In this document: in pieces, positions 31,819 through 62,172 of the stretch
How the letters are laid out: every line of letters begins with the position of its first letter
Numbering within the stretch: position 1 is the first letter of the stretch
Source: Planctomycetota bacterium
GTDB lineage: Bacteria > Planctomycetota > PLA2 > JAEUHO01
NCBI GenBank assembly: GCA_965222115.1
Contig: CBDCTJ010000007.1
Span: forward strand, 192,001 to 256,000
DNA: 64,000 nucleotides
Direction of reading: 5' to 3'
The notes under the pieces: generated by a model
Told to the model about the DNA's origin: nothing
Database searches by the model: none
What the model saw: only the letters and a program-made list of their open reading frames with translations
Translations under genes and position numbers: made by a program

Positions 31819-33897
31819 GTGCCGATCGAACATCAGCCAATCGAACATCATTCGAGCGGCGCCATGAAGGAAGAGATTCGTATGCGCAACGCGAAACCCT
31901 CGTCGGTATCTGAATCAACGGGATTCACCCGCTGGTTGCCCGGTGTCTTTGGTGCCCTCGTACTCACGCTTGGTCTTACATCACTCGCGCCACAGATTGA
32001 GGCGGGCGATGACGTACCTGCCAGCGATGCGCATCCATCAACGAAGGCCGCGGACTCTCGTACGCCATCAATTTCTGTCCACGGCCTGGCAGCCAAAATC
32101 GATACCGTCATCACCAACAAGCTCGACGGGTTCGACATGAAGCCCGCACCCCGCTGCGACGACGCCACCTTTTTGCGTCGCGTGTATCTCGACGTGCTCG
32201 GCACGGTCCCTACGCCCCGCGCCGTAGAAGAGTTTCAAGCCTCCAAGGATCCGAACAAGCGTCGCATCATCATTGATCATCTCGTGGATCACGACTCGGC
32301 GGCGGACTACTGGGGCATGTGGTGGTACCGCACGCTTACCGGCATGAGCGTCCATGCACGTCCCAGTCGCGACGGCGGTGGCGGACGTGCACTTGCGGGT
32401 ATCGGCGGCAAGAAATTCTATGCGTGGCTGAGCCAGCAGATGAGGGACAACCGTCCCTACAACGAGATGGTGCACGATCTTCTTACTGCCACGGGGCGCA
32501 CGGATGAGAACGGAGCCGCCGCCTATTTTGCGCGCTGGGACGGCAATGCCAACAATGCCATCGGCGCCGCGTCGAAACACTTCTTGGGTATGCAGATTCA
32601 ATGCGCCCAGTGCCACGATCACATGTACGAAGAAACGTGGAAGCAGTCCGACTTCCGTGGCATGGCAGCCTTCTTTGCCACCACCACGCAACGTCGCGCT
32701 GCGGAGTATCGCGAACTCCGAGAGCTGCGCCGAAAAATGAACACGCAGCGCCTCGCCAAGAAAGGCGGCGACAACGAAATCGCCCGCCCCGGTAAGTCTT
32801 CGCCCAATATGGAAGGCGAGGGCATGGAGGGCGACGAGATGGACGGCGAGGGTATGGATGGCCCAAGCTCGAACCGCCCACGTGAGATGGACGGACCGCG
32901 CGGGAGCAACAACGCCCGATTCACAGCGGAAGACCGCAAGCGCATGATGGAACTGCGCAAGTTCGGTAATGTGTATGAAGTTGTCGATACACCGGTGCGC
33001 AATTCGCAACTTGCCAAGCGTCTTGCCCGTCGTCTGAAGAACCGAAAGCTCAGTGAAGAACAACGGCAGCGCATCGAACTGCGATTCGCTACGCCCAAAC
33101 TTTGGCACGGCGCAGAGGTGCCCGACATGCCCGGCATTAGCCGGCGGCTGGTGCTGGCGCGTTGGATCACATCCGATGACAACCCCTACTTTGGCAAGGC
33201 ATTGGTCAATCGCCTGTGGGGCGCGTTCTTGGGTACCGGCATTGTGAATCCGGTCGATGACTTCAACAGTTTCAATCCCCCGTCGCATCCTGAGATTCTC
33301 GACATGCTGTCGAGGGATTTCTTGGCCCACGGCTACGACTTGAAGCGCGTGATGCGTGTCATCCTCAACACCGAGGCCTACCAACGCACGTCTACATGGT
33401 CGGGCGAGGAGGCACCGGAGCCGTCGCTATTCGCCGTGGCCAAAGTTCGCCCGCTTACAACCGATCAGCTTTCGTTCGCACTCATTCGCGCTATGGGGCT
33501 GGAGCAGCGCTTCAACCGTCAAACGCGAAACGCCGGAAACCGGCTACGTGCGACGTTTTCGAAGCTCTTCTCCTTCGTCTTTGATGACGACGAAGCCAAG
33601 GAGAGCGAAGACTTTGAAGGCAGCATTGCACAAGGGCTCTTCATGATGAACAGCCCCATTCTTGAACGGACCATTTCCGGCAGACGCGGCATGCCGCTGC
33701 AGCGACTTATGACAGCGCACAAGACCGATGCCGCGCGCGTGAAGCAACTCTACCTTGGCGCCTTTGGACGGCACCCGACGGCAAAGGAATCGCGTCGTGC
33801 GGTGAAGTTTGTCAAGTCCGCCGATGCGCCTGAAGAAGGCTACGAAGACCTGCTCTGGGCCCTTGTGAACGCCGCAGAGTTTATGACCAATCACTAA
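31819..33897 (+). CDS. DUF1549/DUF1553 domain protein (Planctomycete-type)
   Basis: DATFLRRVYLDVLGTVP, FLGMQIQCAQCHDH, VNRLW, PSHPEILD, EDLLWALVNAAEF. Confidence 0.92.
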   Translation: MPIEHQPIEHHSSGAMKEEIRMRNAKPSSVSESTGFTRWLPGVFGALVLTLGLTSLAPQIEAGDDVPASDAHPSTKAADSRTPSISVHGLAAKIDTVITNKLDGFDMKPAPRCDDATFLRRVYLDVLGTVPTPRAVEEFQASKDPNKRRIIIDHLVDHDSAADYWGMWWYRTLTGMSVHARPSRDGGGGRALAGIGGKKFYAWLSQQMRDNRPYNEMVHDLLTATGRTDENGAAAYFARWDGNANNAIGAASKHFLGMQIQCAQCHDHMYEETWKQSDFRGMAAFFATTTQRRAAEYRELRELRRKMNTQRLAKKGGDNEIARPGKSSPNMEGEGMEGDEMDGEGMDGPSSNRPREMDGPRGSNNARFTAEDRKRMMELRKFGNVYEVVDTPVRNSQLAKRLARRLKNRKLSEEQRQRIELRFATPKLWHGAEVPDMPGISRRLVLARWITSDDNPYFGKALVNRLWGAFLGTGIVNPVDDFNSFNPPSHPEILDMLSRDFLAHGYDLKRVMRVILNTEAYQRTSTWSGEEAPEPSLFAVAKVRPLTTDQLSFALIRAMGLEQRFNRQTRNAGNRLRATFSKLFSFVFDDDEAKESEDFEGSIAQGLFMMNSPILERTISGRRGMPLQRLMTAHKTDAARVKQLYLGAFGRHPTAKESRRAVKFVKSADAPEEGYEDLLWALVNAAEFMTNH

Positions 33898-33948
33898 CGC
33901 AACCCCAAGAACGAACCCACTCACTTAGTCGCTACTACGAGGCCCGCT

Positions 33949-35307
33949 ATGTCTACAAACAACCGTTCATCAAGAAGCAACTCGTCGCGCCGCGACCTCA
34001 TTCGCGCTGGCTTGGGACTGGCCGCGGTTTCTGCCGTCAACCTTCAGTGGCCGGGCGCACTGCCCCGAACATTGGCTGAAGAGGACGCGGCGCTTCCTGG
34101 CTTCGGTCAAGCGAAACAGATTGTATTCCTCTACATGAATGGCGGCGCCAGTCACCTTGAGACGTTTGATCCCAAGCCGGGCACAAGCACGGGCGGCCCC
34201 ACGCGCACGATTCCTACCGCTGTAACAGGCGTTCACATTGCCGACAGCCTGCCGCTCCTTGCCAAACGCATGAACGATGTGTGCGTCATTCGCGGCATGA
34301 GCAGCAAAGAGGGCAATCACGAGCGCGCACGCTACCTCATGCACACGGCCTATCCCCCTACGCCCACCATTAAGCACGCAGCATTTGGTTCGTTGCTCGC
34401 GCACGAAGTGGGCAATCCCGATGCCGAGCTACCCGAGTACATCGCCATCAATGGCCCCGGCGCGCGTCCTGGCTACCTGGGTGCCGGATACGCACCGTTT
34501 CTCGTGCGTGTACGCGGCGAAGATCCAAACGTGCGCGGAGGCGGCGCCAACAACCGCCGTCGTAAGGGCGGCGACAAGAGCATCGTTTCCAACTTGAAGC
34601 AGCCGGGCGGCATGAGCAAGGAGCGCCGTGATCGTCGACTGGCGATGCTGTCTTCGCTCAACGAAGACTTTGCGCGGCCGCGCCATGAGGGCGTGAGTGC
34701 GGCGCAAGCCGCCATGTTCGAACGCGCTCGTCGCTTAATGGATTCACCCAAGAATACCGCCTTTGACATGGAATCCGAATCGGCTGAAACCCGGGCGCGC
34801 TACGGCAAGAGCAGTTTCGGGCAAGGCTGTATGCTCGCCCGTCGCCTGATCGACCAAGGTGTCAAGTGCGTCGAAGTCATGTCCAACGGTTGGGACACGC
34901 ACGACGACAACTTCAATCGCGTCAAGGCACTCAACGCGGGCGTCGATCAAGGTGCCTCCGCGCTGATTGATGACCTGAAGAAGAGCGGTCGCTTAGACCA
35001 AACGTTGATCGTGTGGCTCGGCGACTTTGGTCGCACGCCGCGCATTACCGCAAGCCAGGGTCGCGGCCACTACCCACGCGCTTGGTCCACCTTTATGACA
35101 GGCGGCGGTGTTCAGGGCGGTCGTGTGATTGGTGCCACGGACGCTAAGGGAGAGACAGTGGTCAATGGTAAAGTAAGTGTCCCCGACTTCTTTGCTTCCA
35201 TTGCCCACGCCACGGGCATGGATGTGGACAAGACGTTCCATTCCAACGGTCGGCCCATAACGATTGTGAAGGATGGCGCGCCGCTACCAGACTTGTTCAA
35301 GGCATAG
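33949..35307 (+). CDS. DUF1501 domain protein (Tat signal)
   Basis: SRRDLI Tat motif, MNGGASHLETFDPKP, FGQGCMLARRL, WDTH, GDFGRTP. Confidence 0.93.
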   Translation: MSTNNRSSRSNSSRRDLIRAGLGLAAVSAVNLQWPGALPRTLAEEDAALPGFGQAKQIVFLYMNGGASHLETFDPKPGTSTGGPTRTIPTAVTGVHIADSLPLLAKRMNDVCVIRGMSSKEGNHERARYLMHTAYPPTPTIKHAAFGSLLAHEVGNPDAELPEYIAINGPGARPGYLGAGYAPFLVRVRGEDPNVRGGGANNRRRKGGDKSIVSNLKQPGGMSKERRDRRLAMLSSLNEDFARPRHEGVSAAQAAMFERARRLMDSPKNTAFDMESESAETRARYGKSSFGQGCMLARRLIDQGVKCVEVMSNGWDTHDDNFNRVKALNAGVDQGASALIDDLKKSGRLDQTLIVWLGDFGRTPRITASQGRGHYPRAWSTFMTGGGVQGGRVIGATDAKGETVVNGKVSVPDFFASIAHATGMDVDKTFHSNGRPITIVKDGAPLPDLFKA

Positions 35308-55609: not shown

Positions 55610-58600
55610 GTGAGCCTCAAAGGCACGCTAGACACATTCAGCCTGCAGGAATTGCTGCAGATGCTGGCCTTCAATCAGAAGGTAGGCACGCTGGTCCTTG
55701 AGACCGCGTCCGGGACGGCTGCGTTGTATCTGAGCCGCGGCCGCGTGAGCTTCTTTGCGTCGGACCCGGTCGTGTCCGAATGGATGGGCCGCCTGGCCAA
55801 GCGCACGTGCCGCCAACCCCGTCGTCTCGATCAGGCCATTCGCGATCAGAAAGAATCGCGGCGCTACATGGGCAATATCCTGCTGCAAATGAGGCTTTTT
55901 ACGGAGCAGGAGGTCCGCGACCTCTACACCGACGTTGCCGCCGACCGCATTTTTCATATTCAGTCCCAAGAAATCCACAGCTTCGAATTTCGCGAGGGCA
56001 TTTCGGTTGGCCCGGACGGAAGTGCAAGTACGCCGCTTGATCCACTCATGCAAGTGGACGCGCTGTTGCTCGATCTCACGCGAAAGATGGACCACTGGGC
56101 AAGTTATCGCGAACAGATCACCAGCCTTGATGAGGTATACGAGCAGTCGGGTGAAGCATGGGAGCCGACGTCACTCGGAGACGTAGATCCCGGTCGCGCA
56201 CATGCTGTTGCCCACGCCGTAGACGGCGTGCGAACCGTTCGCCAAATCGCCGAAGCCAGCGGCGTGGATCTCTTCACGACGGTACAAGCGCTGATCGCGC
56301 TCCTGGATCAGGGCGCCATCCGTGTCGCGAGTACCGCCGGTTTGTATGACCGTGCGCAACGTGTCATGGAAGAGGGAGACGCGCGCACCGGCGCGTCACT
56401 GCTCGGTGCGCTCGCGGGACGGCAAGACGCCCCAATGGATGCCGCGCTCTTGGAGGCGGAAGCCTACGAGTCGCTGGGCGAAGACCGCCTTGCCGCGACG
56501 GCCATGGAGCGCTACGCAAACGCTGAACATCAAGACCCCGAACATCGATATCGCGCGCTGTACAAAGCGGCATCCCTGCGGGAAAACGACTTGGCATCGT
56601 GGCTTACCGTGTGCGATGCATACCTCCAGCGCCGCGATGTGCTCTACGCCGTTCGGGAGTCCGCGGCGGAAGCCGTACACATTGCTGCACGCCTTTCGCT
56701 AGAAGAGTCGCGGCCCCACGACGCCGCGACGCGCTTGCAGGCATTCGTCGATCTGGGCGACGTTCGTTCCGAAGATCGCGTACTCCTGGCCGACCTGTAT
56801 GCCGCCAGTGACGACATCTCGGCAGCGGCCAAGACGCTCTGCGCGCATGGAGACGACATCCTCGCGGCGGGACGCCCGGGAGCGGCGTTGGCGGTGTACC
56901 GCCGTGCGCTACGGCTCGACCCGCAATGCAAGTACGCAAGGAAGCGGGTGGGCACGCTCGAACCGAGCATGACCGTTCCGCGTCGTTCCACCCTCCGACG
57001 CACACTTCCCACCCTCCTTATTCCGGTGCTGCTTGCCGCAGCGGGCATTGCCGGATGGAACGCCATGAAGCAAACCGACGAGACGGTCGATCTCGTCGCC
57101 GATCGATCCAAAACGCTCGTTGCGCGAGCCGATGATCGTGGCGCTGCCTTAATTACGTCGTTTCAGAAGCACGTAGACGCGGCTGCGGTGAAAGAGGATG
57201 GCTACGACGCGTTAGTCAAAGAGGCGACCCATCTTCGTGAGCGCGTCGCAGAAGCCATGGCCACGGACGACGGCGAAATCGAGGCCATGGCCAAGTCGCT
57301 AGACAACGCGCGGCGGGGCGGAACAAGCGTTGCGGAGCAAATCCGAGAAGCGCTTCGTGAGTGCCAAGCGAGAGCCGATGCGCGCGTGACTAAGGTTCTT
57401 GGCGCGCTAAAGATCCGTTGTGAACACGCGTTGCACAAAGGAAAGAAGGCCCACGCAGAAGGCAACTTCACGGATGCGCATGGCCTGCTCCTCGAGGCTC
57501 AAAGTCTATCCGTGCACAATGAAGATGTTCATTTGCAGGCGGAGGCGCAATTTGCTGCTGTGTCGCGCTACCTCAAGAAGTTTGAGGACGTGCGCAACGC
57601 CATGGAGCATGCTGAAGTTGCTGGCGACTTGCAACAAGCGTACGCCACAGGCATCGAAGGCATCCGTGAACTCTTGGACTCCGACGTCACGCGTTCTCTT
57701 CGTTTCCCGGTTCAAGTCACCAGCACCCCACCGGACGCTGAGATTTACGTGGGCGGCGTCGATACCGGTCTGCGCACGCCCACGGTGATTCACTACAGTC
57801 CCATGAGCGAAGACACGTTCCTCAAGGTTCGCCTCCCAGGTTACACAACATTTGAAGTTGAATTGCCCACGCTGTCCCATGCAACGCGTCCAGAATCCAC
57901 CGCGCACGAATGGAAGAACGTCGTGGATTGCACGCTTGCCCCAGGACCCAGCGCTGTGGTTCATTCCCGCGTCTCCCCCACGTTGACACACGTGTGGAGC
58001 TCGGGCGAGCAGTCCTTTGTACTTGGCAGCGAAGGGCATGTGATCTTCGCCGTGGACACACAACGCAGTCGACTGGTCCAGCACACCAGCACGCCTGCCC
58101 ATGCAAGCGCCTTCGTAAACGCTGGAGCCATGAGCGACGGGTACCAATGGACGTTCTCCGATGACGAAACACTGGAAGTTCATCGCGGCGACGGCTTGAC
58201 ATGGCGCAGGCGACTCTCCACACCCATGGTGGGCGCCCCGGTGCTTCGACGTGAAATCGTCTTGGTGCTCACAGCTTCCGGCGCCGTGTTGGGCCTTGAT
58301 GCAAAGACCGGTGGGCTGGCATGGCAACACGCGCTGCCGTCGCGTCCGCGCCATGGTCTTCGTCGTACGACGGCAGGCGCCACCGTGACCACGGTGCGAG
58401 GTGAAGTTTTTCAGTTTCATGCCGGGACCGGCGTGTGTGACTCCATCGCTCCTGCACGCGATGAGCGCGCCGGCTCTGTCCGACTCGGTCGCGGCGTTTT
58501 GGTTGTGGGATCGGGGAAGGGCGGTTTGCAGTTCTTTCGCTCCGCCGGTCGGCCTACCGTACTGAAACACACGCGCCGCGTAACAGGCCACCAACTCGTG

Positions 58601-58900
58601 TCGTCAGGCAAGGTGGCGGTTTGGAAGAGCGACGCGGGGGTCGTCGCCCTTTACAAAGACACGAACGTGCCCAAAGTGGTTTCTGGACTCCCCACGCATG
58701 TCGCCGAGCTCTTGCTGGTCGATGACACGCTCTATGCCGTTGAGGAAGGCGGGCAAGCCGTCATGGCCGTCTCACTCAAGGCCCCCAATGCGCCGCTCTG
58801 GCGTTGTCCGCTTCCGCACGTGGCTACCGGGACCCTAACGGCGTCGGGCCCCCATCTCTTGGTGGTCACCGAGTCGGGTTTGGCCGTCATCGAACGCTAG
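55610..58900 (+). CDS. DUF4388 + TPR + TM + PEGA + PQQ-like beta-propeller protein
   Basis: LKGTLDTFSLQELLQML....KVGTL (DUF4388), VDGVRTVRQI, YRRALRLDP, TM LLIPVLLAAAGIAGW, VTSTPPDAEIYV.G...GLRTP (PEGA), GLDAKTGGLAW. Confidence 0.85.
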   Translation: MSLKGTLDTFSLQELLQMLAFNQKVGTLVLETASGTAALYLSRGRVSFFASDPVVSEWMGRLAKRTCRQPRRLDQAIRDQKESRRYMGNILLQMRLFTEQEVRDLYTDVAADRIFHIQSQEIHSFEFREGISVGPDGSASTPLDPLMQVDALLLDLTRKMDHWASYREQITSLDEVYEQSGEAWEPTSLGDVDPGRAHAVAHAVDGVRTVRQIAEASGVDLFTTVQALIALLDQGAIRVASTAGLYDRAQRVMEEGDARTGASLLGALAGRQDAPMDAALLEAEAYESLGEDRLAATAMERYANAEHQDPEHRYRALYKAASLRENDLASWLTVCDAYLQRRDVLYAVRESAAEAVHIAARLSLEESRPHDAATRLQAFVDLGDVRSEDRVLLADLYAASDDISAAAKTLCAHGDDILAAGRPGAALAVYRRALRLDPQCKYARKRVGTLEPSMTVPRRSTLRRTLPTLLIPVLLAAAGIAGWNAMKQTDETVDLVADRSKTLVARADDRGAALITSFQKHVDAAAVKEDGYDALVKEATHLRERVAEAMATDDGEIEAMAKSLDNARRGGTSVAEQIREALRECQARADARVTKVLGALKIRCEHALHKGKKAHAEGNFTDAHGLLLEAQSLSVHNEDVHLQAEAQFAAVSRYLKKFEDVRNAMEHAEVAGDLQQAYATGIEGIRELLDSDVTRSLRFPVQVTSTPPDAEIYVGGVDTGLRTPTVIHYSPMSEDTFLKVRLPGYTTFEVELPTLSHATRPESTAHEWKNVVDCTLAPGPSAVVHSRVSPTLTHVWSSGEQSFVLGSEGHVIFAVDTQRSRLVQHTSTPAHASAFVNAGAMSDGYQWTFSDDETLEVHRGDGLTWRRRLSTPMVGAPVLRREIVLVLTASGAVLGLDAKTGGLAWQHALPSRPRHGLRRTTAGATVTTVRGEVFQFHAGTGVCDSIAPARDERAGSVRLGRGVLVVGSGKGGLQFFRSAGRPTVLKHTRRVTGHQLVSSGKVAVWKSDAGVVALYKDTNVPKVVSGLPTHVAELLLVDDTLYAVEEGGQAVMAVSLKAPNAPLWRCPLPHVATGTLTASGPHLLVVTESGLAVIER

Positions 58901-59012: not shown

Positions 59013-60107
59013 GTGGGACTACTTAGCACCCTATTTGGCGGCCGCAAGGTCGAGCACTATCTGAGGCGCAGCCGCGAGCGACTTGCCATGGGTCGCCTGG
59101 AAGATGCAACCCGCGTCATTGAGGCGGGTCTGGAGCGCTTTCCGGGCGCACACTCGCTACGTGAAGTGCAGTTGGCCATTCGCCGCACGCAGGCGCGCGA
59201 TGCTATGCGTGATCTCAAGAGCCGCATTGAAGCCGATGCGGATCCGATCGCGTTCGAGCAACTCATTAAGCTGTACCGCGAAACGGAAATGCCGGCGGAG
59301 GCGCTCCGCGCGGCGTCGCAATACACAGCGGCCCACCCCGACAGCGATACACCCCATCTCTTGTTGGGCGAAATGTACCTCGGTCGATTCTTTGAAGACG
59401 TGGACGCGCGTTCGGGACTCCATGCCCATCAACACTTGCGTCGCGCACGTCAAATCAACGCCGATGCGCTAAAGCCTTTGTTGCTGTTGGCGGAGTTGTA
59501 CTACTGCGTGGACGCACCGCGCCGCCTGGCCATGGTGGCGCGCGACTTGCGGGCCATCGGAACGGGCGATGAACACGTATCGTCGGTACTGGAGACCATT
59601 GAGCCTCACAGTGACTTGGATCAGGAGCTTCGCGCCGACAGCCATTTCGAACGCATTGAAGTGGACGGTGTATTTCCTCGCGACCCCTCGACATGGCCCC
59701 TGCGTACGCATCGCAACCGCGGCGCCATCATGCAAGAAGAGCGCGCCAACCGCGCGGTACGTTCCCTGGTGTCAAAGAACGCCGTGGAAGAGGTCGCCAT
59801 TCTTCGAACCAACGGCGCCGTCATCGCCTACCGCAGCAAGCACGAGGCGGATCCCGACGACGAACAAGACCCCGCCTTGGTTGCGATTGCCCGCCATGTC
59901 AACAAAACGGTATCGCGCTATGCGCGGGAGTTTGACCTCGGCGCCTTCAAGCGTTGCACCGTATTGGGGCCGGAAGGGCATCTCATCGTGGGCCGCGTCG
60001 GCAACGTGGTGGCAGGCGCGCGCGCACGCACGTCGGTCGAAGCCGGACGCGTATGGGACCGCGTACGCATTCGACTCGAAGGCGCACTCAAGGGAGCGGA
60101 CGCATGA
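59013..60107 (+). CDS. TPR protein with a C-terminal roadblock/LC7-like domain
   Basis: TPR-like N-terminus; C-terminal VEEVAILRTNGAVI...AREFDLGAFKRCTVLGPEGHLIV. Confidence 0.72.
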   Translation: MGLLSTLFGGRKVEHYLRRSRERLAMGRLEDATRVIEAGLERFPGAHSLREVQLAIRRTQARDAMRDLKSRIEADADPIAFEQLIKLYRETEMPAEALRAASQYTAAHPDSDTPHLLLGEMYLGRFFEDVDARSGLHAHQHLRRARQINADALKPLLLLAELYYCVDAPRRLAMVARDLRAIGTGDEHVSSVLETIEPHSDLDQELRADSHFERIEVDGVFPRDPSTWPLRTHRNRGAIMQEERANRAVRSLVSKNAVEEVAILRTNGAVIAYRSKHEADPDDEQDPALVAIARHVNKTVSRYAREFDLGAFKRCTVLGPEGHLIVGRVGNVVAGARARTSVEAGRVWDRVRIRLEGALKGADA

Positions 60108-60460
60108 AGACCATCCTCAATGAGCTGACGGAGTCGATTTCTTCGCGCGGCGCCATCGTCATGCTGGAAGACGGCATGGTGGTCTGTGCGGACATTCGCG
60201 ACGGGCCCGCCGAAGATCGCTTGGCCGCCTTGGGTGCCGCGATCTTGCGAGAGCTCGGTACGAGCCTGCGAAGCGCAGGCGTCAAGGAGTTCCGCCAAAT
60301 CGAAATTGCGGCGGAACACGGCAAAGTGATTCTTGCCGAAGCAGGCGCGACGTTCTTGTTGGTGCTGTTGGGACCACAAATCGAAATTGGGCCCGCCAGC
60401 ATCGAGATTCAGAGTGCAGCCGCGAAGTTGGCCAAGCTGGCCGAGTTCGCCACCGCGTAG
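60104..60460 (+). CDS. Roadblock/LC7 protein (MglC-like)
   Basis: ATGA overlap with the upstream gene; GAIVMLEDGMVV, DRLAALGA, QIEIAAEHGKVIL. Confidence 0.88.
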   Translation: MKTILNELTESISSRGAIVMLEDGMVVCADIRDGPAEDRLAALGAAILRELGTSLRSAGVKEFRQIEIAAEHGKVILAEAGATFLLVLLGPQIEIGPASIEIQSAAAKLAKLAEFATA

Positions 60461-60583
60461 GGACTGATCGCCGAGTCCAAAATACAACAAGACATTCAGT
60501 GAACAGAGAAGCCCGGTCGAAAAGAGTAGTGACCTCGCGCACGGACAGCCGGCGCGAACTCAAACTGTTGGAGTTGCGATACG

Positions 60584-61618
60584 ATGGTTCAAATCAACTT
60601 CGCACAAAAAGAGATTCAGTGCAAAATCGTGTACTACGGCCCGGGCATGTCGGGCAAGACCACGAACCTCGAACTTGTACACGGCAAGGTGCCCGATGAT
60701 CACCGTGGCGAGTTGACGTCCATCGCAACGACGGGGGAGCGTACGCTCTACTTTGACTACATGCCATTGGATCTGGGACAGATCGCGGGTATCCGTACAA
60801 AGTTCCAGCTCTATACGGTTCCCGGTCAAATCTATTACAAGTCCACACGTCGCTTGGTGTTGCAAGGCGTGGACGGCATTGTGTTCGTCGCCGACTCAAG
60901 CGAAGCCAAGTTGCGCGAGAATTTGGAGTCGCTGCAAGACCTCGAAGAGAACTTGCGCGAGATGGGCAAGTCGATTCACGACGTGCCGATTGTGATTCAA
61001 TACAACAAGCGTGACTTGCCGGACGCCATGTCGGTGGAAGATCTACAGCGGGAAGTCAATCCGCACGGTTTCCCTCATACCGAGGCGATCGCAACGAGTG
61101 GTGAGGGCATTTTCCCAACACTCAAGACGCTTGCTGGCATGGTGCTGGAGTCGGTCAACGCGGGCGGCCTGACGCCGCCACGCCCCAAGGTCAAGGCCAA
61201 GCCCAAGGAAGAGAGTCCGGAACCGGTCGCGGTCGCAAGTGGAGCGCCTGGTACCACTGCCGCCGCAGCGACGCAATCGTCCAGTGCGGGTGGACTCAAA
61301 ATTCAACGACCCACGGGGGGAGCACCCGCCGCAACCACGACTGCGTCGGCCAACACCAAGGCGGTCGCAAAGGGCTCGCGAGCAAGCCACGCCCCGCGTG
61401 GTGTCGGCAGGCCCATGCCGTCGTCAAGCAACAACGGGAGTTCGGTGGTGCCCCAACCACCGTCGCCCGCTCAATCCACTCCGCGTCAATTGGAAGACCG
61501 CGTCATCCGTGTGGATGGCCTGCGGCGAGCACGTGGAGGCAACAACAAAGTGGCATTGATTGCGGGGCTGGCGCTACTGATCGCCGGTGTTGCCTACTTC
61601 ATTGCGACGCAGCTTTAG
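60584..61618 (+). CDS. mglA: MglA-family small GTPase with a disordered extension and C-terminal TM anchor
   Basis: KIVYYGPGMSGKTTNL, ERTLYFD, LYTVPGQ, GVDGIVFVADS, QYNKRDL; tail VALIAGLALLIAGVAYFIATQL. Confidence 0.93.
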   Translation: MVQINFAQKEIQCKIVYYGPGMSGKTTNLELVHGKVPDDHRGELTSIATTGERTLYFDYMPLDLGQIAGIRTKFQLYTVPGQIYYKSTRRLVLQGVDGIVFVADSSEAKLRENLESLQDLEENLREMGKSIHDVPIVIQYNKRDLPDAMSVEDLQREVNPHGFPHTEAIATSGEGIFPTLKTLAGMVLESVNAGGLTPPRPKVKAKPKEESPEPVAVASGAPGTTAAAATQSSSAGGLKIQRPTGGAPAATTTASANTKAVAKGSRASHAPRGVGRPMPSSSNNGSSVVPQPPSPAQSTPRQLEDRVIRVDGLRRARGGNNKVALIAGLALLIAGVAYFIATQL

Positions 61619-61644
61619 ACGAAGAGACTCGTAGAGGACTCATC

Positions 61645-62172
61645 ATGACCAGCCGAACCGACAAGAGCATTCGCGACGATGCGTTGATCTTCTATCAAGA
61701 AGACATTGACGCACTGAACGCCATTCTCGATGCATTCCTCAAGAAGAGCGCAGCCAAGTCTGCGTTGCTCGTTGACAAGGACGGGCACATGATCACGTCA
61801 CGCGGCGACACCGAGAACACGGATCTCGACACGATCTCGGCACTGGTCGCAGGATCCTTTGCCGCCACACGCGCGCTCGCTCACCAGTTTGGCGAAAAGG
61901 ACTTCACCGCGCTCTTCCATCAGGGCCGCAGCGAAAGCATGCAGCTCGCCCTGGTTGGGGATCGCGCACTCTTGACCGCGCTGTTTGACGACAACACGAC
62001 CATCGGCATGGTGCGCCTTTACGCCACGGAAGCCGCACGTCGCTTGACGCAACTCTTTGAACAGAAGCGCGAACGCGAGCGCGCAGCGGTCCCCGCAGGC
62101 GGCGATCGCGACAACGGCGCCTTCAAGGAGGGTGCAAGCGGCGCGCTCGACGAGGTGTTTGGCGACGCCTAG
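61645..62172 (+). CDS. mglB: MglB (GTPase-activating roadblock protein)
   Basis: LVDKDGHMI, LDTISALVAGSFAAT, EKDFTALFHQG, FDDNTTIGMVRL, C-terminal ALDEVFG. Confidence 0.92.
   Translation: MTSRTDKSIRDDALIFYQEDIDALNAILDAFLKKSAAKSALLVDKDGHMITSRGDTENTDLDTISALVAGSFAATRALAHQFGEKDFTALFHQGRSESMQLALVGDRALLTALFDDNTTIGMVRLYATEAARRLTQLFEQKRERERAAVPAGGDRDNGAFKEGASGALDEVFGDA

Follow-up and report, generated by a model that had tools for sequence, protein, structure and literature searches.

MglA is the model for the bacterial Ras-like polarity switch, and current models of this switch need a soluble protein that swaps poles. Does the gene at positions 60584..61618 (+ strand) of the window, the whole stretch of 64,000 nucleotides of planctomycete DNA analysed here, code for an MglA that is instead held permanently in the membrane, and how might such a protein work? 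An earlier note, made from the sequence alone, had proposed a tail-anchored GTPase and set it against characterised MglA proteins, which it described as soluble; the latter statement agrees with the structures and papers (3t12, 5ymx, 6h17, 6hjh).

The gene, which we call mglA-TM, starts with ATG, has a GGAG 11-14 nt 5' of this codon, and codes for 344 residues plus a stop codon. Its product consists of a complete MglA core, a disordered cationic linker and a C-terminal helix. The G domain covers residues 1-194 (60584..61165, + strand), as delimited by phmmer matches to MglA chains of the PDB and by its fold in the AF2 model. T. thermophilus MglA (3t12) aligns with residues 2-194 at E 1.1e-71, and the M. 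xanthus MglA chains 5ymx, 6h17 and 6hjh align with residues 3-195 at E about 1e-65. The P-loop GPGMSGKTT fits GxxxxGK[ST], as in Group 1 MglA, and the M. xanthus numbering is kept for R53 and T54 in ERTL and for Q82 in PGQ. The arginine finger R53 and the catalytic Q82 are invariant in an alignment of 112 relatives, as is the G4 motif NKxD (N141, K142, R143, D144); the listing for this alignment has 90 invariant columns within the G domain. The intact core that the earlier note had read from the Arg in ERTL, the Gln in PGQ and NKRD is thus borne out, with all motifs in place. Of 115 relatives, 112 have a G domain with a negative net charge. A genome-wide search found mglA-TM as the only MglA match and no separate short mglA. 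With its 344 residues, the protein exceeds the 150-240 aa window given in the accessible text of PMC4316618, which is the size rule of one study and not a biochemical criterion.

The linker (residues 195-322; 61166..61549, + strand) is rich in Ala, Pro, Ser and Gly, and was recognised from pLDDT, composition and charge. In the AF2 model, 10-residue blocks across 201-320 average pLDDT 39-58, and the composition of residues 196-322 (127 aa) is led by A20, P17, S15, G13, R11, T10, V9 and K8. The linker, of about 128 aa, has a net charge of +13; linkers are net positive in all 115 relatives (median +10), and their length among long relatives ranges from 88 to 203 aa. That every relative examined has a cationic linker is new here. 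The juxtamembrane motif DRVIRVDGL (residues 305-313; 61496..61522, + strand) lies about 10 residues N-terminal of the helix and corresponds to a clade consensus DRVVxVxGL, whose D and R are invariant and whose two V occur at 90% or more in an alignment of 14 tails. Of 189 sequences, 97 have the strict motif; a loose version was found in 111 of the 189 juxtamembrane windows and in 4 of 516 windows taken elsewhere in the linkers. It is newly noted here and, judging from its distribution, is clade-specific, whereas the helix spans the phylum. In the AF2 monomer the motif (pLDDT about 50) is not packed against the G domain, with no sign of an intramolecular contact. The basic patch LRRARGGNNK (residues 313-322; 61520..61549, + strand) ends in an invariant Lys just before the helix. 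The succession described by the earlier note, a linker of about 130 aa, this patch and a terminal helix, is what we read at 61166-61609.

The helix itself, VALIAGLALLIAGVAYFIAT, spans residues 323-342 (61550..61609, + strand) and is followed by QL and the stop codon. In line with the earlier note it is predicted to be transmembrane (TM), a call based on hydropathy, flanking charge and the AF2 helix. Its 20 residues are uncharged and reach a Kyte-Doolittle (KD) 19-mer maximum of 2.56 at residue 323, while the rest of the protein has no 19-mer above 0.90, no N-terminal signal and no second TM. AF2 places a helix at 320-343, with pLDDT averages of 91, 98 and 89 over the final three 10-residue blocks. 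A single hydrophobic segment, located at the C-terminus, is rare among the crude ORFs of this genome: of 3065 with 150 aa or more, 8 have one. Among 115 relatives, the uninterrupted stretch without D, E, K, R, H, Q, N or P measures 19-28 residues (median 20), with no polar face, and is followed by 0-7 residues (median 2, and 2 in mglA-TM). Some of the relatives' helices are rich in Ala and Gly and of lower hydropathy, one of them at KD 1.61. An invariant L and F and a near-invariant I-A inside the helix (14 tails aligned) outline a conserved face, which is new here.

The 15-aa flank N-terminal of the helix has a net charge of +4 in mglA-TM and a mean of +2.6 over the 115 relatives, against +0.6 after the helix; it is the more positive side in 103 relatives, with a tie in 11 and the reverse in one. 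One or two Lys or Arg follow the helix in many relatives, and the positive-inside signal is good, not absolute. The flanking charge favours a predicted N-in topology with a cytoplasmic G domain, an orientation that would also follow from the need of a GTPase for cytoplasmic GTP.

How widespread is this architecture? Counting MglA homologues with a C-terminal TM, as the earlier note had proposed, gave a C-terminal hydrophobic segment (KD at least 1.9) in 115 of the best 120, and the five without it are 192-265 aa long. When distinct sequences of 280 aa or more are considered, 189 of 191 keep the segment; one of the two exceptions lacks any hydrophobic segment and the other has it farther from the end. 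A chance origin of the tail is excluded by this conservation. The best 78 loci of a contig search all come from Planctomycetota MAGs, except two labelled 'bacterium', and the cultured planctomycete Engelhardtia mirabilis has the same MglA-TM architecture. MglA matches were present in 228 of 401 sampled Planctomycetota genomes. By manual count, 129 of 150 listed MglA places are open frames of at least 290 aa; nine of the 21 shorter ones begin at most 70 nt from a contig start, and among 11 other short frames that we fetched, 10 run off the contig end with the break inside the linker and one holds a run of N. Assemblies often break in this repetitive linker, so truncated gene calls resemble ordinary short MglA. 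The putatively anchored form appears to be the usual one in the Planctomycetota sampled. From the listing alone, the Atlas also has extended MglA clusters in Myxococcota and Krumholzibacteriota. A profile of the tail (motif and helix, 52 positions) matched 24 proteins at E <= 0.001 among 1.84 billion representatives. Twelve of these were read: ten are C-terminal fragments of MglA-TM proteins or linkers, one has a broken tail, and one of 145 aa (P0131), in which an unrelated N-terminal part precedes the tail, is a possible chimera; the remaining 12 matches measure 35-69 aa. Among the 12 of 24 read, none indicated that the tail is a module common to other protein families. In the literature we found no paper describing the anchored form, and an MglA with a C-terminal membrane anchor is apparently undescribed.

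mglA-TM belongs to a cassette of five closely spaced genes. The first (55610..58900, + strand) encodes a bitopic protein of 1096 aa with Pfam matches to DUF4388 (E 8.7e-17), PEGA (5.5e-5) and PQQ_2 (8.7e-8), arranged as an N-terminal PATAN/DUF4388 domain with helical repeats, a TM at about 465-486, PEGA, and a PQQ-like beta-propeller. Its single hydrophobic segment is preceded by PRRSTLRR, and the TM with its basic stretch is present in 18/18 aligned orthologues; the N-terminal part is predicted to be cytoplasmic and the PEGA and propeller part periplasmic. An orthologue lies upstream of mglA in 17/20 long loci. The second gene (59013..60107, + strand) encodes a 364-aa TPR-Roadblock protein, with a Pfam match to TPR_14 and a weak one to Robl_LC7 (E 0.0047). 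In its AF2 model (pLDDT 86), a helical solenoid (4-218) is followed by alpha-beta-beta-alpha-beta-beta-beta-alpha at 236-359, and Foldseek matched it to 9jue_F (TMt 0.77), M. xanthus MglB (6hjm_B, 0.74) and p14/MP1 (0.73-0.76), as well as to TPR superhelices; the gene occurs in 25/29 loci and 14/20 long loci. Its stop is overlapped by 4 nt by the start of a small Roadblock/LC7 protein of 118 aa (60104..60460, + strand; Robl_LC7 E 2.6e-8), found in 29/29 loci and 17/20 long loci. Finally, 26 nt 3' of mglA-TM lies a gene (61645..62172, + strand) for an MglB-like Roadblock protein of 175 aa (Robl_LC7 E 2.6e-13), whose best NCBIfam family is MglB at E 3.4e-26, although its 92 bits stay below the 200-bit equivalog cut-off. 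This gene is present in 26/29 loci, the three others being cut at contig ends, and in 20/20 long loci; such coupling of mglA to an mglB-like Roadblock gene is a mark of Group 1. All three Roadblock matches of this genome sit in the cassette. The TM alignment of the 18 PATAN-protein orthologues contained no conserved residues that would point to a pairing between this TM and the conserved helix face of MglA, and a complex prediction of residues 285-322 (14-row alignment) with PATAN residues 1-462 and the TPR-Roadblock protein gave a score of 0.00, which bears neither way.

We consider it probable that mglA-TM is an MglA switch permanently anchored in the inner membrane, regulated by MglB and working in the membrane plane. 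The G domain would lie in the cytoplasm, tied at the inner membrane by the C-terminal TM helix, with about 128 flexible, polycationic residues between the two as a leash; two residues would lie beyond the membrane, and the helix would insert after translation. Because the arginine finger and the catalytic glutamine are kept, GTP/GDP cycling should persist, and the adjacent MglB-like protein would presumably act as the GAP of mglA-TM. Since neither nucleotide state could leave the membrane, the cytosolic route by which Myxococcus MglA changes place would be closed to this protein, and its control and readout would consequently have to take place within the membrane plane. The earlier note's argument that a tether would alter the working of the MglA switch is a reasonable inference. 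In the most likely arrangement, mglA-TM would be the output of its conserved cassette, with the PATAN-TM-beta-propeller protein as membrane receptor or scaffold and the TPR-Roadblock and small Roadblock proteins as further regulators, and MglA-GTP would bring effectors from the cytoplasm to sites on the membrane, the type IV pilus machinery being the leading candidate.

For the PATAN and Roadblock proteins, these roles are suggested by gene neighbourhood and by analogy, as is an output through pili. A link of PATAN to MglA/MglB by gene neighbourhood is already in print (accessible text of PMC4316618), and the portion available of bioRxiv 10.1101/2021.06.11.447907 describes PATAN regulators binding to the motor of type IV pili. 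The genome has eight T2SSE-family ATPase matches. PilM_2 (PF11104) matches occur in 392/401 genomes; since these include MglA-less families (f5, 20/20; f3, 5/5), their presence does not discriminate. As a hint by eye, the PilM_2 E-values are weaker in the MglA-less families. More tentatively, and with clearly less confidence than in the anchored switch itself, the cassette may be a transmembrane device leading from receptor to Ras-like GTPase. Its periplasmic PEGA/propeller sensor would set the nucleotide state of membrane MglA through the Roadblock regulators, the leashed GTPase would capture machines such as pilus motors at membrane sites, and the juxtamembrane motifs would act like the targeting signals of Rab hypervariable regions; the combination of variable linker, basic patch and membrane anchor would then be an independent bacterial invention. 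Planctomycetota are known for elaborate internal membranes.

An anchored switch presupposes that the tail is real, spans the bilayer and stays attached. A lost stop codon, frameshift or assembly join might have fused a normal mglA to a small membrane ORF, and the linker is low-complexity, high-GC DNA of a kind prone to poor assembly: the fetched short relatives nearly all end inside it at a contig end, and within it the reading frames cannot be told apart by codon-position GC, which is uninformative where Ala, Pro and Gly codons dominate. We nonetheless regard such an artefact as extremely improbable. The same architecture recurs with linkers of varying length in the 189 long relatives, close and distant orthologues from many assemblies, and in the genome of the cultured strain, which answers the earlier note's concern about a lost stop codon; this genome, moreover, lacks a separate short mglA. 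In each of two samples, a per-run contig covers 60492-61639, and with it the whole gene, unbroken and with zero differences, though both samples come from one study, possibly the source, and so are not independent. None of the sequencing runs listed as carrying this DNA is an RNA run. It is also unlikely that the hydrophobic C-terminus is a peripheral helix of the MinD kind or a buried partner contact, either of which could make the attachment reversible. The conserved helix face would suit a protein contact as well, but no charged or strongly polar residue of the MinD amphipathic type is found in the 20-residue segment, the long apolar stretch has no polar face in any of the 115 relatives, hydropathy is high both here and in the best homologues, and an invariant Lys before the helix with so few residues after it is the pattern of a membrane-spanning anchor. 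Slightly less probable again is a temporary anchor, in which the protein is a pro-form whose G domain is freed by proteolysis in the linker or the membrane, or the tail is a C-terminal sorting signal. C-terminal sorting signals likewise pair a motif with a hydrophobic helix, and the short motif before the helix, the conserved residues inside it and a long linker that the model suggests to be accessible to proteases would all fit. However, sortase- and exosortase-type signals have their basic residues after the helix, whereas those of mglA-TM precede it. There is no N-terminal signal peptide, the G domain beginning at residue 2; the motif is limited to one clade while the helix is phylum-wide; and among the neighbourhoods of the 20 long loci, the cassette has no recurring gene for a dedicated protease.

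A further alternative concerns function rather than the tail, and we give it a share of probability that is small but larger than that of any alternative on the tail: the protein may serve a Myxococcus-type front-rear polarity oscillator, with an anchor that merely raises local concentration and a PATAN protein that is no receptor. In its favour, the G domain closely resembles that of Group 1 MglA, arginine finger included, an mglB adjoins the gene, and a Roadblock paralogue, MglC, accompanies the M. xanthus module too (accessible text of PMC4719450). Against this, a cytosolic pole-to-pole switch would be closed to an integral membrane protein, and the anchored form is accompanied by a conserved cassette of five genes, one of them for a bitopic PATAN-propeller protein. 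The membrane-anchored, MglB-regulated switch remains our preferred reading.

If so, Planctomycetota with a predicted integral-membrane MglA offer a natural test of which parts of the polarity models are essential, since the pattern of an anchored MglA would have to arise by sorting within the membrane or by local activation. Bench tests are possible, Engelhardtia mirabilis being cultured and having the same architecture. The finding also fills a gap in the family census: according to its accessible text, the prokaryotic small-GTPase survey of Wuichet and Sogaard-Andersen (PMC4316618) excluded sequences above 240 aa, and 39 long MglA-clade sequences were set aside there.

Compared with the Group 1 MglA/MglB systems of M. 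xanthus and T. thermophilus, mglA-TM shares the G domain, the P-loop, the positions of Arg53, Gln82 and NKRD, and an mglB-like gene downstream. It differs in about 150 extra residues (cationic disordered linker, motif and TM helix) and in its setting, a fixed set of five genes that also encodes a PATAN membrane protein and two more Roadblock proteins. The actinobacterial conservon (CvnA-D), with a Group 2 MglA, likewise combines a GTPase, a Roadblock partner and a membrane protein (PMC4316618), and a paper cited there terms it a membrane-associated heterocomplex in its title. As far as the accessible text goes, however, its membrane link is the histidine kinase CvnA and not the GTPase, its partners differ from those of mglA-TM, and Group 2 MglA is without the conserved arginine finger. 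The bacterial tail-anchored proteins TssL/SciP, DjlC and Flk, among which the accessible texts describe no GTPase (PMC6794478, PMC3087755, PMC3426401), resemble mglA-TM in having just one TM, placed at the very C-terminus, and in lacking a signal peptide; most of their chain lies in the cytoplasm, as is also predicted for mglA-TM.

Ragulator-Rag also brings several Roadblock-fold proteins together with a membrane-held small GTPase (accessible text of PMC10933270), and its p14/MP1 match the structure of the TPR-Roadblock protein. The resemblance is structural only. Its anchor at the lysosome is the extended LAMTOR1 (same text), whereas in mglA-TM the GTPase itself would be anchored. LAMTOR1 is lipidated. 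Among the membrane-attached small GTPases of eukaryotes, K-Ras4B and Rab proteins carry a hypervariable region and a lipid, Miro/Gem1 are tail-anchored, and SR-beta has an N-terminal TM; what this group has in common with mglA-TM is a folded G domain, succeeded in turn by a flexible variable linker, a basic stretch and a C-terminal membrane anchor. Clade-specific short motifs near the anchor occur in Rab hypervariable regions as well. The parallel that the earlier note drew with the polybasic, anchored tails of Ras and Rab is apt as an analogy. Rab geranylgeranylation is described in the accessible text of PMC10933270. The anchor of mglA-TM is a protein helix and not a lipid, so no GDI-type extraction cycle would be possible; its linker is three to four times longer, and it arose independently within the MglA family. 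Such convergence with the Ras and Rab tails bears on the evolution of membrane attachment in small GTPases.

The gene at 60584-61618 of the window (+ strand, ATG start) encodes a protein of 344 aa, which we call mglA-TM. In a search of PDB chains, its residues 2-194 match Thermus thermophilus MglA (3t12; E 1.1e-71, 245 bits) and residues 3-195 match Myxococcus xanthus MglA (5ymx, 6h17, 6hjh; E about 1e-65). Beyond the MglA structures no match is better than E 1e-7, where eukaryotic Arf proteins follow, and Pfam assigns generic Arf/Ras models only. The catalytic set is complete at M. xanthus numbering (P-loop GPGMSGKTT, R53/T54 in ERTL, Q82 in PGQ, and N141-K-R-D144), with no variation in an alignment of 112 relatives. 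Judged by catalytic residues, similarity and coupling to mglB, mglA-TM is a Group 1-type MglA; it departs from the group only in length, lying outside the operational size window of 150-240 aa used in PMC4316618. Beyond about residue 194 the protein takes on a different character. In an AlphaFold2 (AF2) model built from the 112-sequence alignment, the G domain is folded, blocks across residues 201-320 have a mean pLDDT of 39-58, and residues 320-343 form a helix (block means 91, 98 and 89). An earlier note, made from the sequence alone, had described an MglA core, an Ala/Pro/Ser-rich linker, a basic patch and a terminal hydrophobic helix; sequence, hydropathy and model place each of them where it was proposed.

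We searched 5.8 billion proteins and analysed the best 120 homologues, taking as criterion a terminal hydrophobic 19-mer with a Kyte-Doolittle (KD) value >=1.9. Such a segment is present in 115, and the five homologues lacking it are 192-265 aa long. Pooling the 120 with the complete MglA frames of further fetched loci gave 196 distinct sequences, 191 of them >=280 aa. Counting homologues with a C-terminal hydrophobic segment, which the earlier note had put forward as a check together with their taxonomy, bore out its proposal: 189 of these 191 long relatives carry it at the terminus; of the other two, one has it at a greater distance from the C-terminus and one lacks it. This recurrence rules out a lost stop codon as the origin of the tail. 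The architecture of mglA-TM is real and conserved.

Within the phylum, at least 228 of 401 sampled genomes have an MglA match (E <= 1e-20), a lower bound because a stricter first look preceded this match. By manual count, 129 of the 150 listed MglA places in this sample are open frames >=290 aa. Nine of the 21 shorter frames start less than 70 nt from the contig start; 11 were fetched, of which ten leave the contig end inside the linker and one has a run of N. With 20 of the 21 accounted for, the best matches in the phylum sample include no MglA that can be shown to be short. The low-complexity linker is a frequent assembly breakpoint (fetched loci L133 and L135-L143; retrieved proteins P0086, P0087, P0096, P0098 and P0100), and broken gene calls of 190-265 aa pass for ordinary soluble MglA, an annotation trap. 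The genome from which the window comes (4.55 Mb, 90% complete) has mglA-TM as its single MglA match. A lone hydrophobic segment at the C-terminus is found in 8 of the 3065 crude ORFs >=150 aa of this genome; the seven other tail-anchor-like ORFs include C1:552309-553355, C3:512994-513629 and C7:2604251-2605123 (contig and coordinates; segment within the last 30 residues). The stretch 60492-61639 occurs in one piece, with zero differences, in per-run contigs of two samples from one study, possibly the window's source. A contig from a different organism in the same samples has a divergent GTPase gene, which matches just two short pieces of the mglA-TM G domain (within 60650-60895).

The linker (residues 196-322, 127 residues) consists mostly of Ala, Pro, Ser, Gly, Arg and Thr and has a net charge of +13. 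Among relatives its length ranges from 88 to 203 residues (median 125) and its sequence is poorly conserved, yet the reading frame is open through it to the helix wherever it was measured. Its net charge is positive in 115/115 relatives (median +10), and that of the G domain is negative in 112/115; charge and disorder are thus conserved rather than sequence. We infer that this cationic leash lies along the anionic membrane surface. An extended polypeptide spans about 0.36-0.38 nm per residue, and by this arithmetic a fully stretched linker could give the G domain a reach of some tens of nanometres. The linker ends in a juxtamembrane motif, DRVIRVDGL (residues 305-313), and a basic patch, LRRARGGNNK (313-322). 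The motif has the consensus DRVVxVxGL, about ten residues upstream of the helix, its D and R being invariant in 14 tails of the query's family and near relatives. The strict pattern is found in 97/189 sequences, and the loose pattern R.[VI].[VIML] in 111/189 juxtamembrane windows versus 4/516 other linker windows. Other clades have different recurrent strings at this position, such as FRREVKVIGG or R[ILF][KQR]PR.

Residues 323-342 form the uncharged stretch VALIAGLALLIAGVAYFIAT, followed by QL and the stop codon. The KD maximum over 19 residues is 2.56, at residue 323, the rest of the protein staying at <=0.90. In 115 relatives the uncharged stretch has 19-28 residues (median 20) with 0-7 trailing residues (median 2). 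Mean net charge is +2.6 over the 15 residues on the N-side of the helix versus +0.6 on the C-side, the N-side being more positive in 103 relatives, equal in 11 and less positive in one. These flanks, the lack of a signal peptide in mglA-TM and the requirement of a GTPase for cytoplasmic GTP together indicate a classical tail anchor, predicted to hold the G domain inside the cell. The 14 tails also share an invariant Lys before the helix and, within it, an invariant Leu, a near-invariant Ile-Ala pair and an invariant Phe, a pattern which suggests packing against another helix. We consider a helix lying peripherally on the membrane very unlikely for so long and uncharged a segment. A cleavable pro-form anchor or sorting signal is slightly less probable again, as mglA-TM has no signal peptide and the basic residues lie before the helix. 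That the tail is an artefact, as broken frames in this gene might invite one to think, has next to no probability given its recurrence in long relatives.

With a profile of motif plus helix, a search of 1.84 billion representative proteins gave 24 matches; of the 12 read, ten are MglA-TM fragments, one has a broken tail and one is apparently chimeric. On this evidence, with half of the matches read, the tail does not appear to be a module common to other protein families. The chimera-like match, P0131 (145 aa), carries an MglA-type tail (NERLVSVSGL plus helix) behind an unrelated N-terminal part, which we take to resemble the C-terminus of an electron-transfer flavoprotein beta subunit; the protein could reflect either a chimeric assembly or a genuine but rare fusion. 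The best 78 loci from species-representative genomes bear Planctomycetota-type MAG titles, save two labelled 'bacterium', and the closest Atlas clusters are mostly Planctomycetota, with representatives of 365-395 aa. An exact-sequence look-up of eight orthologous ORFs found one recorded from a cultured strain, Engelhardtia mirabilis (360 aa, annotated MglA or GTP-binding protein). Many homologues carry the JGI automatic name 'signal recognition particle receptor subunit beta', probably because SR-beta is a membrane-anchored GTPase of the Arf-like type; others are called MglA or hypothetical. Elsewhere in the window (31819-35307), a DUF1501 gene lies behind a PSCyt2/PSD1 (DUF1549/DUF1553) gene, a pair typical of Planctomycetota and in keeping with the taxonomy drawn from the relatives.

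mglA-TM is the fourth of five genes on a single strand (+), with gaps of 112, -4, 123 and 26 nt. The first (55610-58900) codes for a protein of 1096 aa whose N-terminal PATAN/DUF4388 domain is followed by a helical region, a hydrophobic segment, PEGA and a PQQ-like beta-propeller; since its one hydrophobic segment (about 465-486) is preceded by PRRSTLRR, it is predicted to be bitopic, with PATAN cytoplasmic and the propeller outside. The second (59013-60107) combines TPR with a C-terminal Roadblock fold of 120 residues in an AF2 model of pLDDT 86; Foldseek matches it to M. xanthus MglB, p14/MP1 and a Roadblock protein from Asgard at TM-scores of 0.73-0.77. A small Roadblock protein (60104-60460, 118 aa) precedes mglA-TM, and an MglB-like Roadblock protein (61645-62172, 175 aa) follows it, with MglB as best NCBIfam family (E 3.4e-26, under the equivalog cut-off). 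These three are the genome's only Roadblock matches. Gene order is conserved across relatives' loci: in 29 short loci we found the small Roadblock in 29, MglB in 26 (the other three end at a contig edge) and TPR-Roadblock in 25. A set of 20 longer loci all have MglB, 17 have the small Roadblock, 17 the PATAN protein and 14 TPR-Roadblock. A conserved acidic motif, about ALDD[VL]FG[DE] (window 62140-62169), closes the MglB orthologues in most of these 20 loci (L032-L051), and the TPR-Roadblock N-terminus in the query's clade reads G.[IL]..LF.G (59013-59060); the two are similar and might compete for the same site. MglB of M. xanthus reportedly engages MglA through a C-terminal helix. Two more DUF4388/PATAN proteins of the genome (C7:1579445-1579918 and C7:946757-947209; frames of 1223 and 253 aa) have no MglA or Roadblock gene nearby. 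PATAN genes are described as occasionally near Group 1 and Group 5 mglA by Wuichet and Sogaard-Andersen (PMC4316618), with Makarova et al. (2006) cited for MglB.

We propose that the C-terminal helix would insert mglA-TM post-translationally, leaving it resident in the inner membrane whether GTP- or GDP-bound. Because the arginine finger and glutamine are conserved, the G domain would cycle with MglB as GAP; lacking cytosolic diffusion, it would be regulated and read out at the membrane. The cassette suggests the PATAN-propeller protein as a possible receptor or scaffold, and the extra Roadblock pair may be regulators, by analogy with MglC, RomY and Ragulator. A conventional MglA oscillator simply bearing an anchor would have the same catalytic set and MglB partner; with a helix expected to hold both nucleotide states in the membrane, we think it unlikely. 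For the membrane-resident switch, a pilus-related output is plausible by analogy, since a cyanobacterium has PATAN regulators that bind its type IV pilus motor (bioRxiv 10.1101/2021.06.11.447907), pili are under MglA control in M. xanthus, and the window's genome has eight T2SSE-family ATPase matches.

Planctomycetes are absent from the main text of the MglA survey PMC4316618. In the portions searched of the full-text literature open without subscription we found no description of a membrane-anchored, tail-anchored or C-terminally transmembrane MglA, in Planctomycetota or elsewhere, nor anything relevant on small GTPase plus Roadblock in this phylum. This form is apparently an undescribed variant of a well-known switch. 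Its interest lies chiefly in two comparisons: current MglA models treat a cytosolic step as essential, whereas in mglA-TM that step would be lost, and eukaryotic GTPases use a design of linker, basic patch and anchor on which mglA-TM appears to converge.
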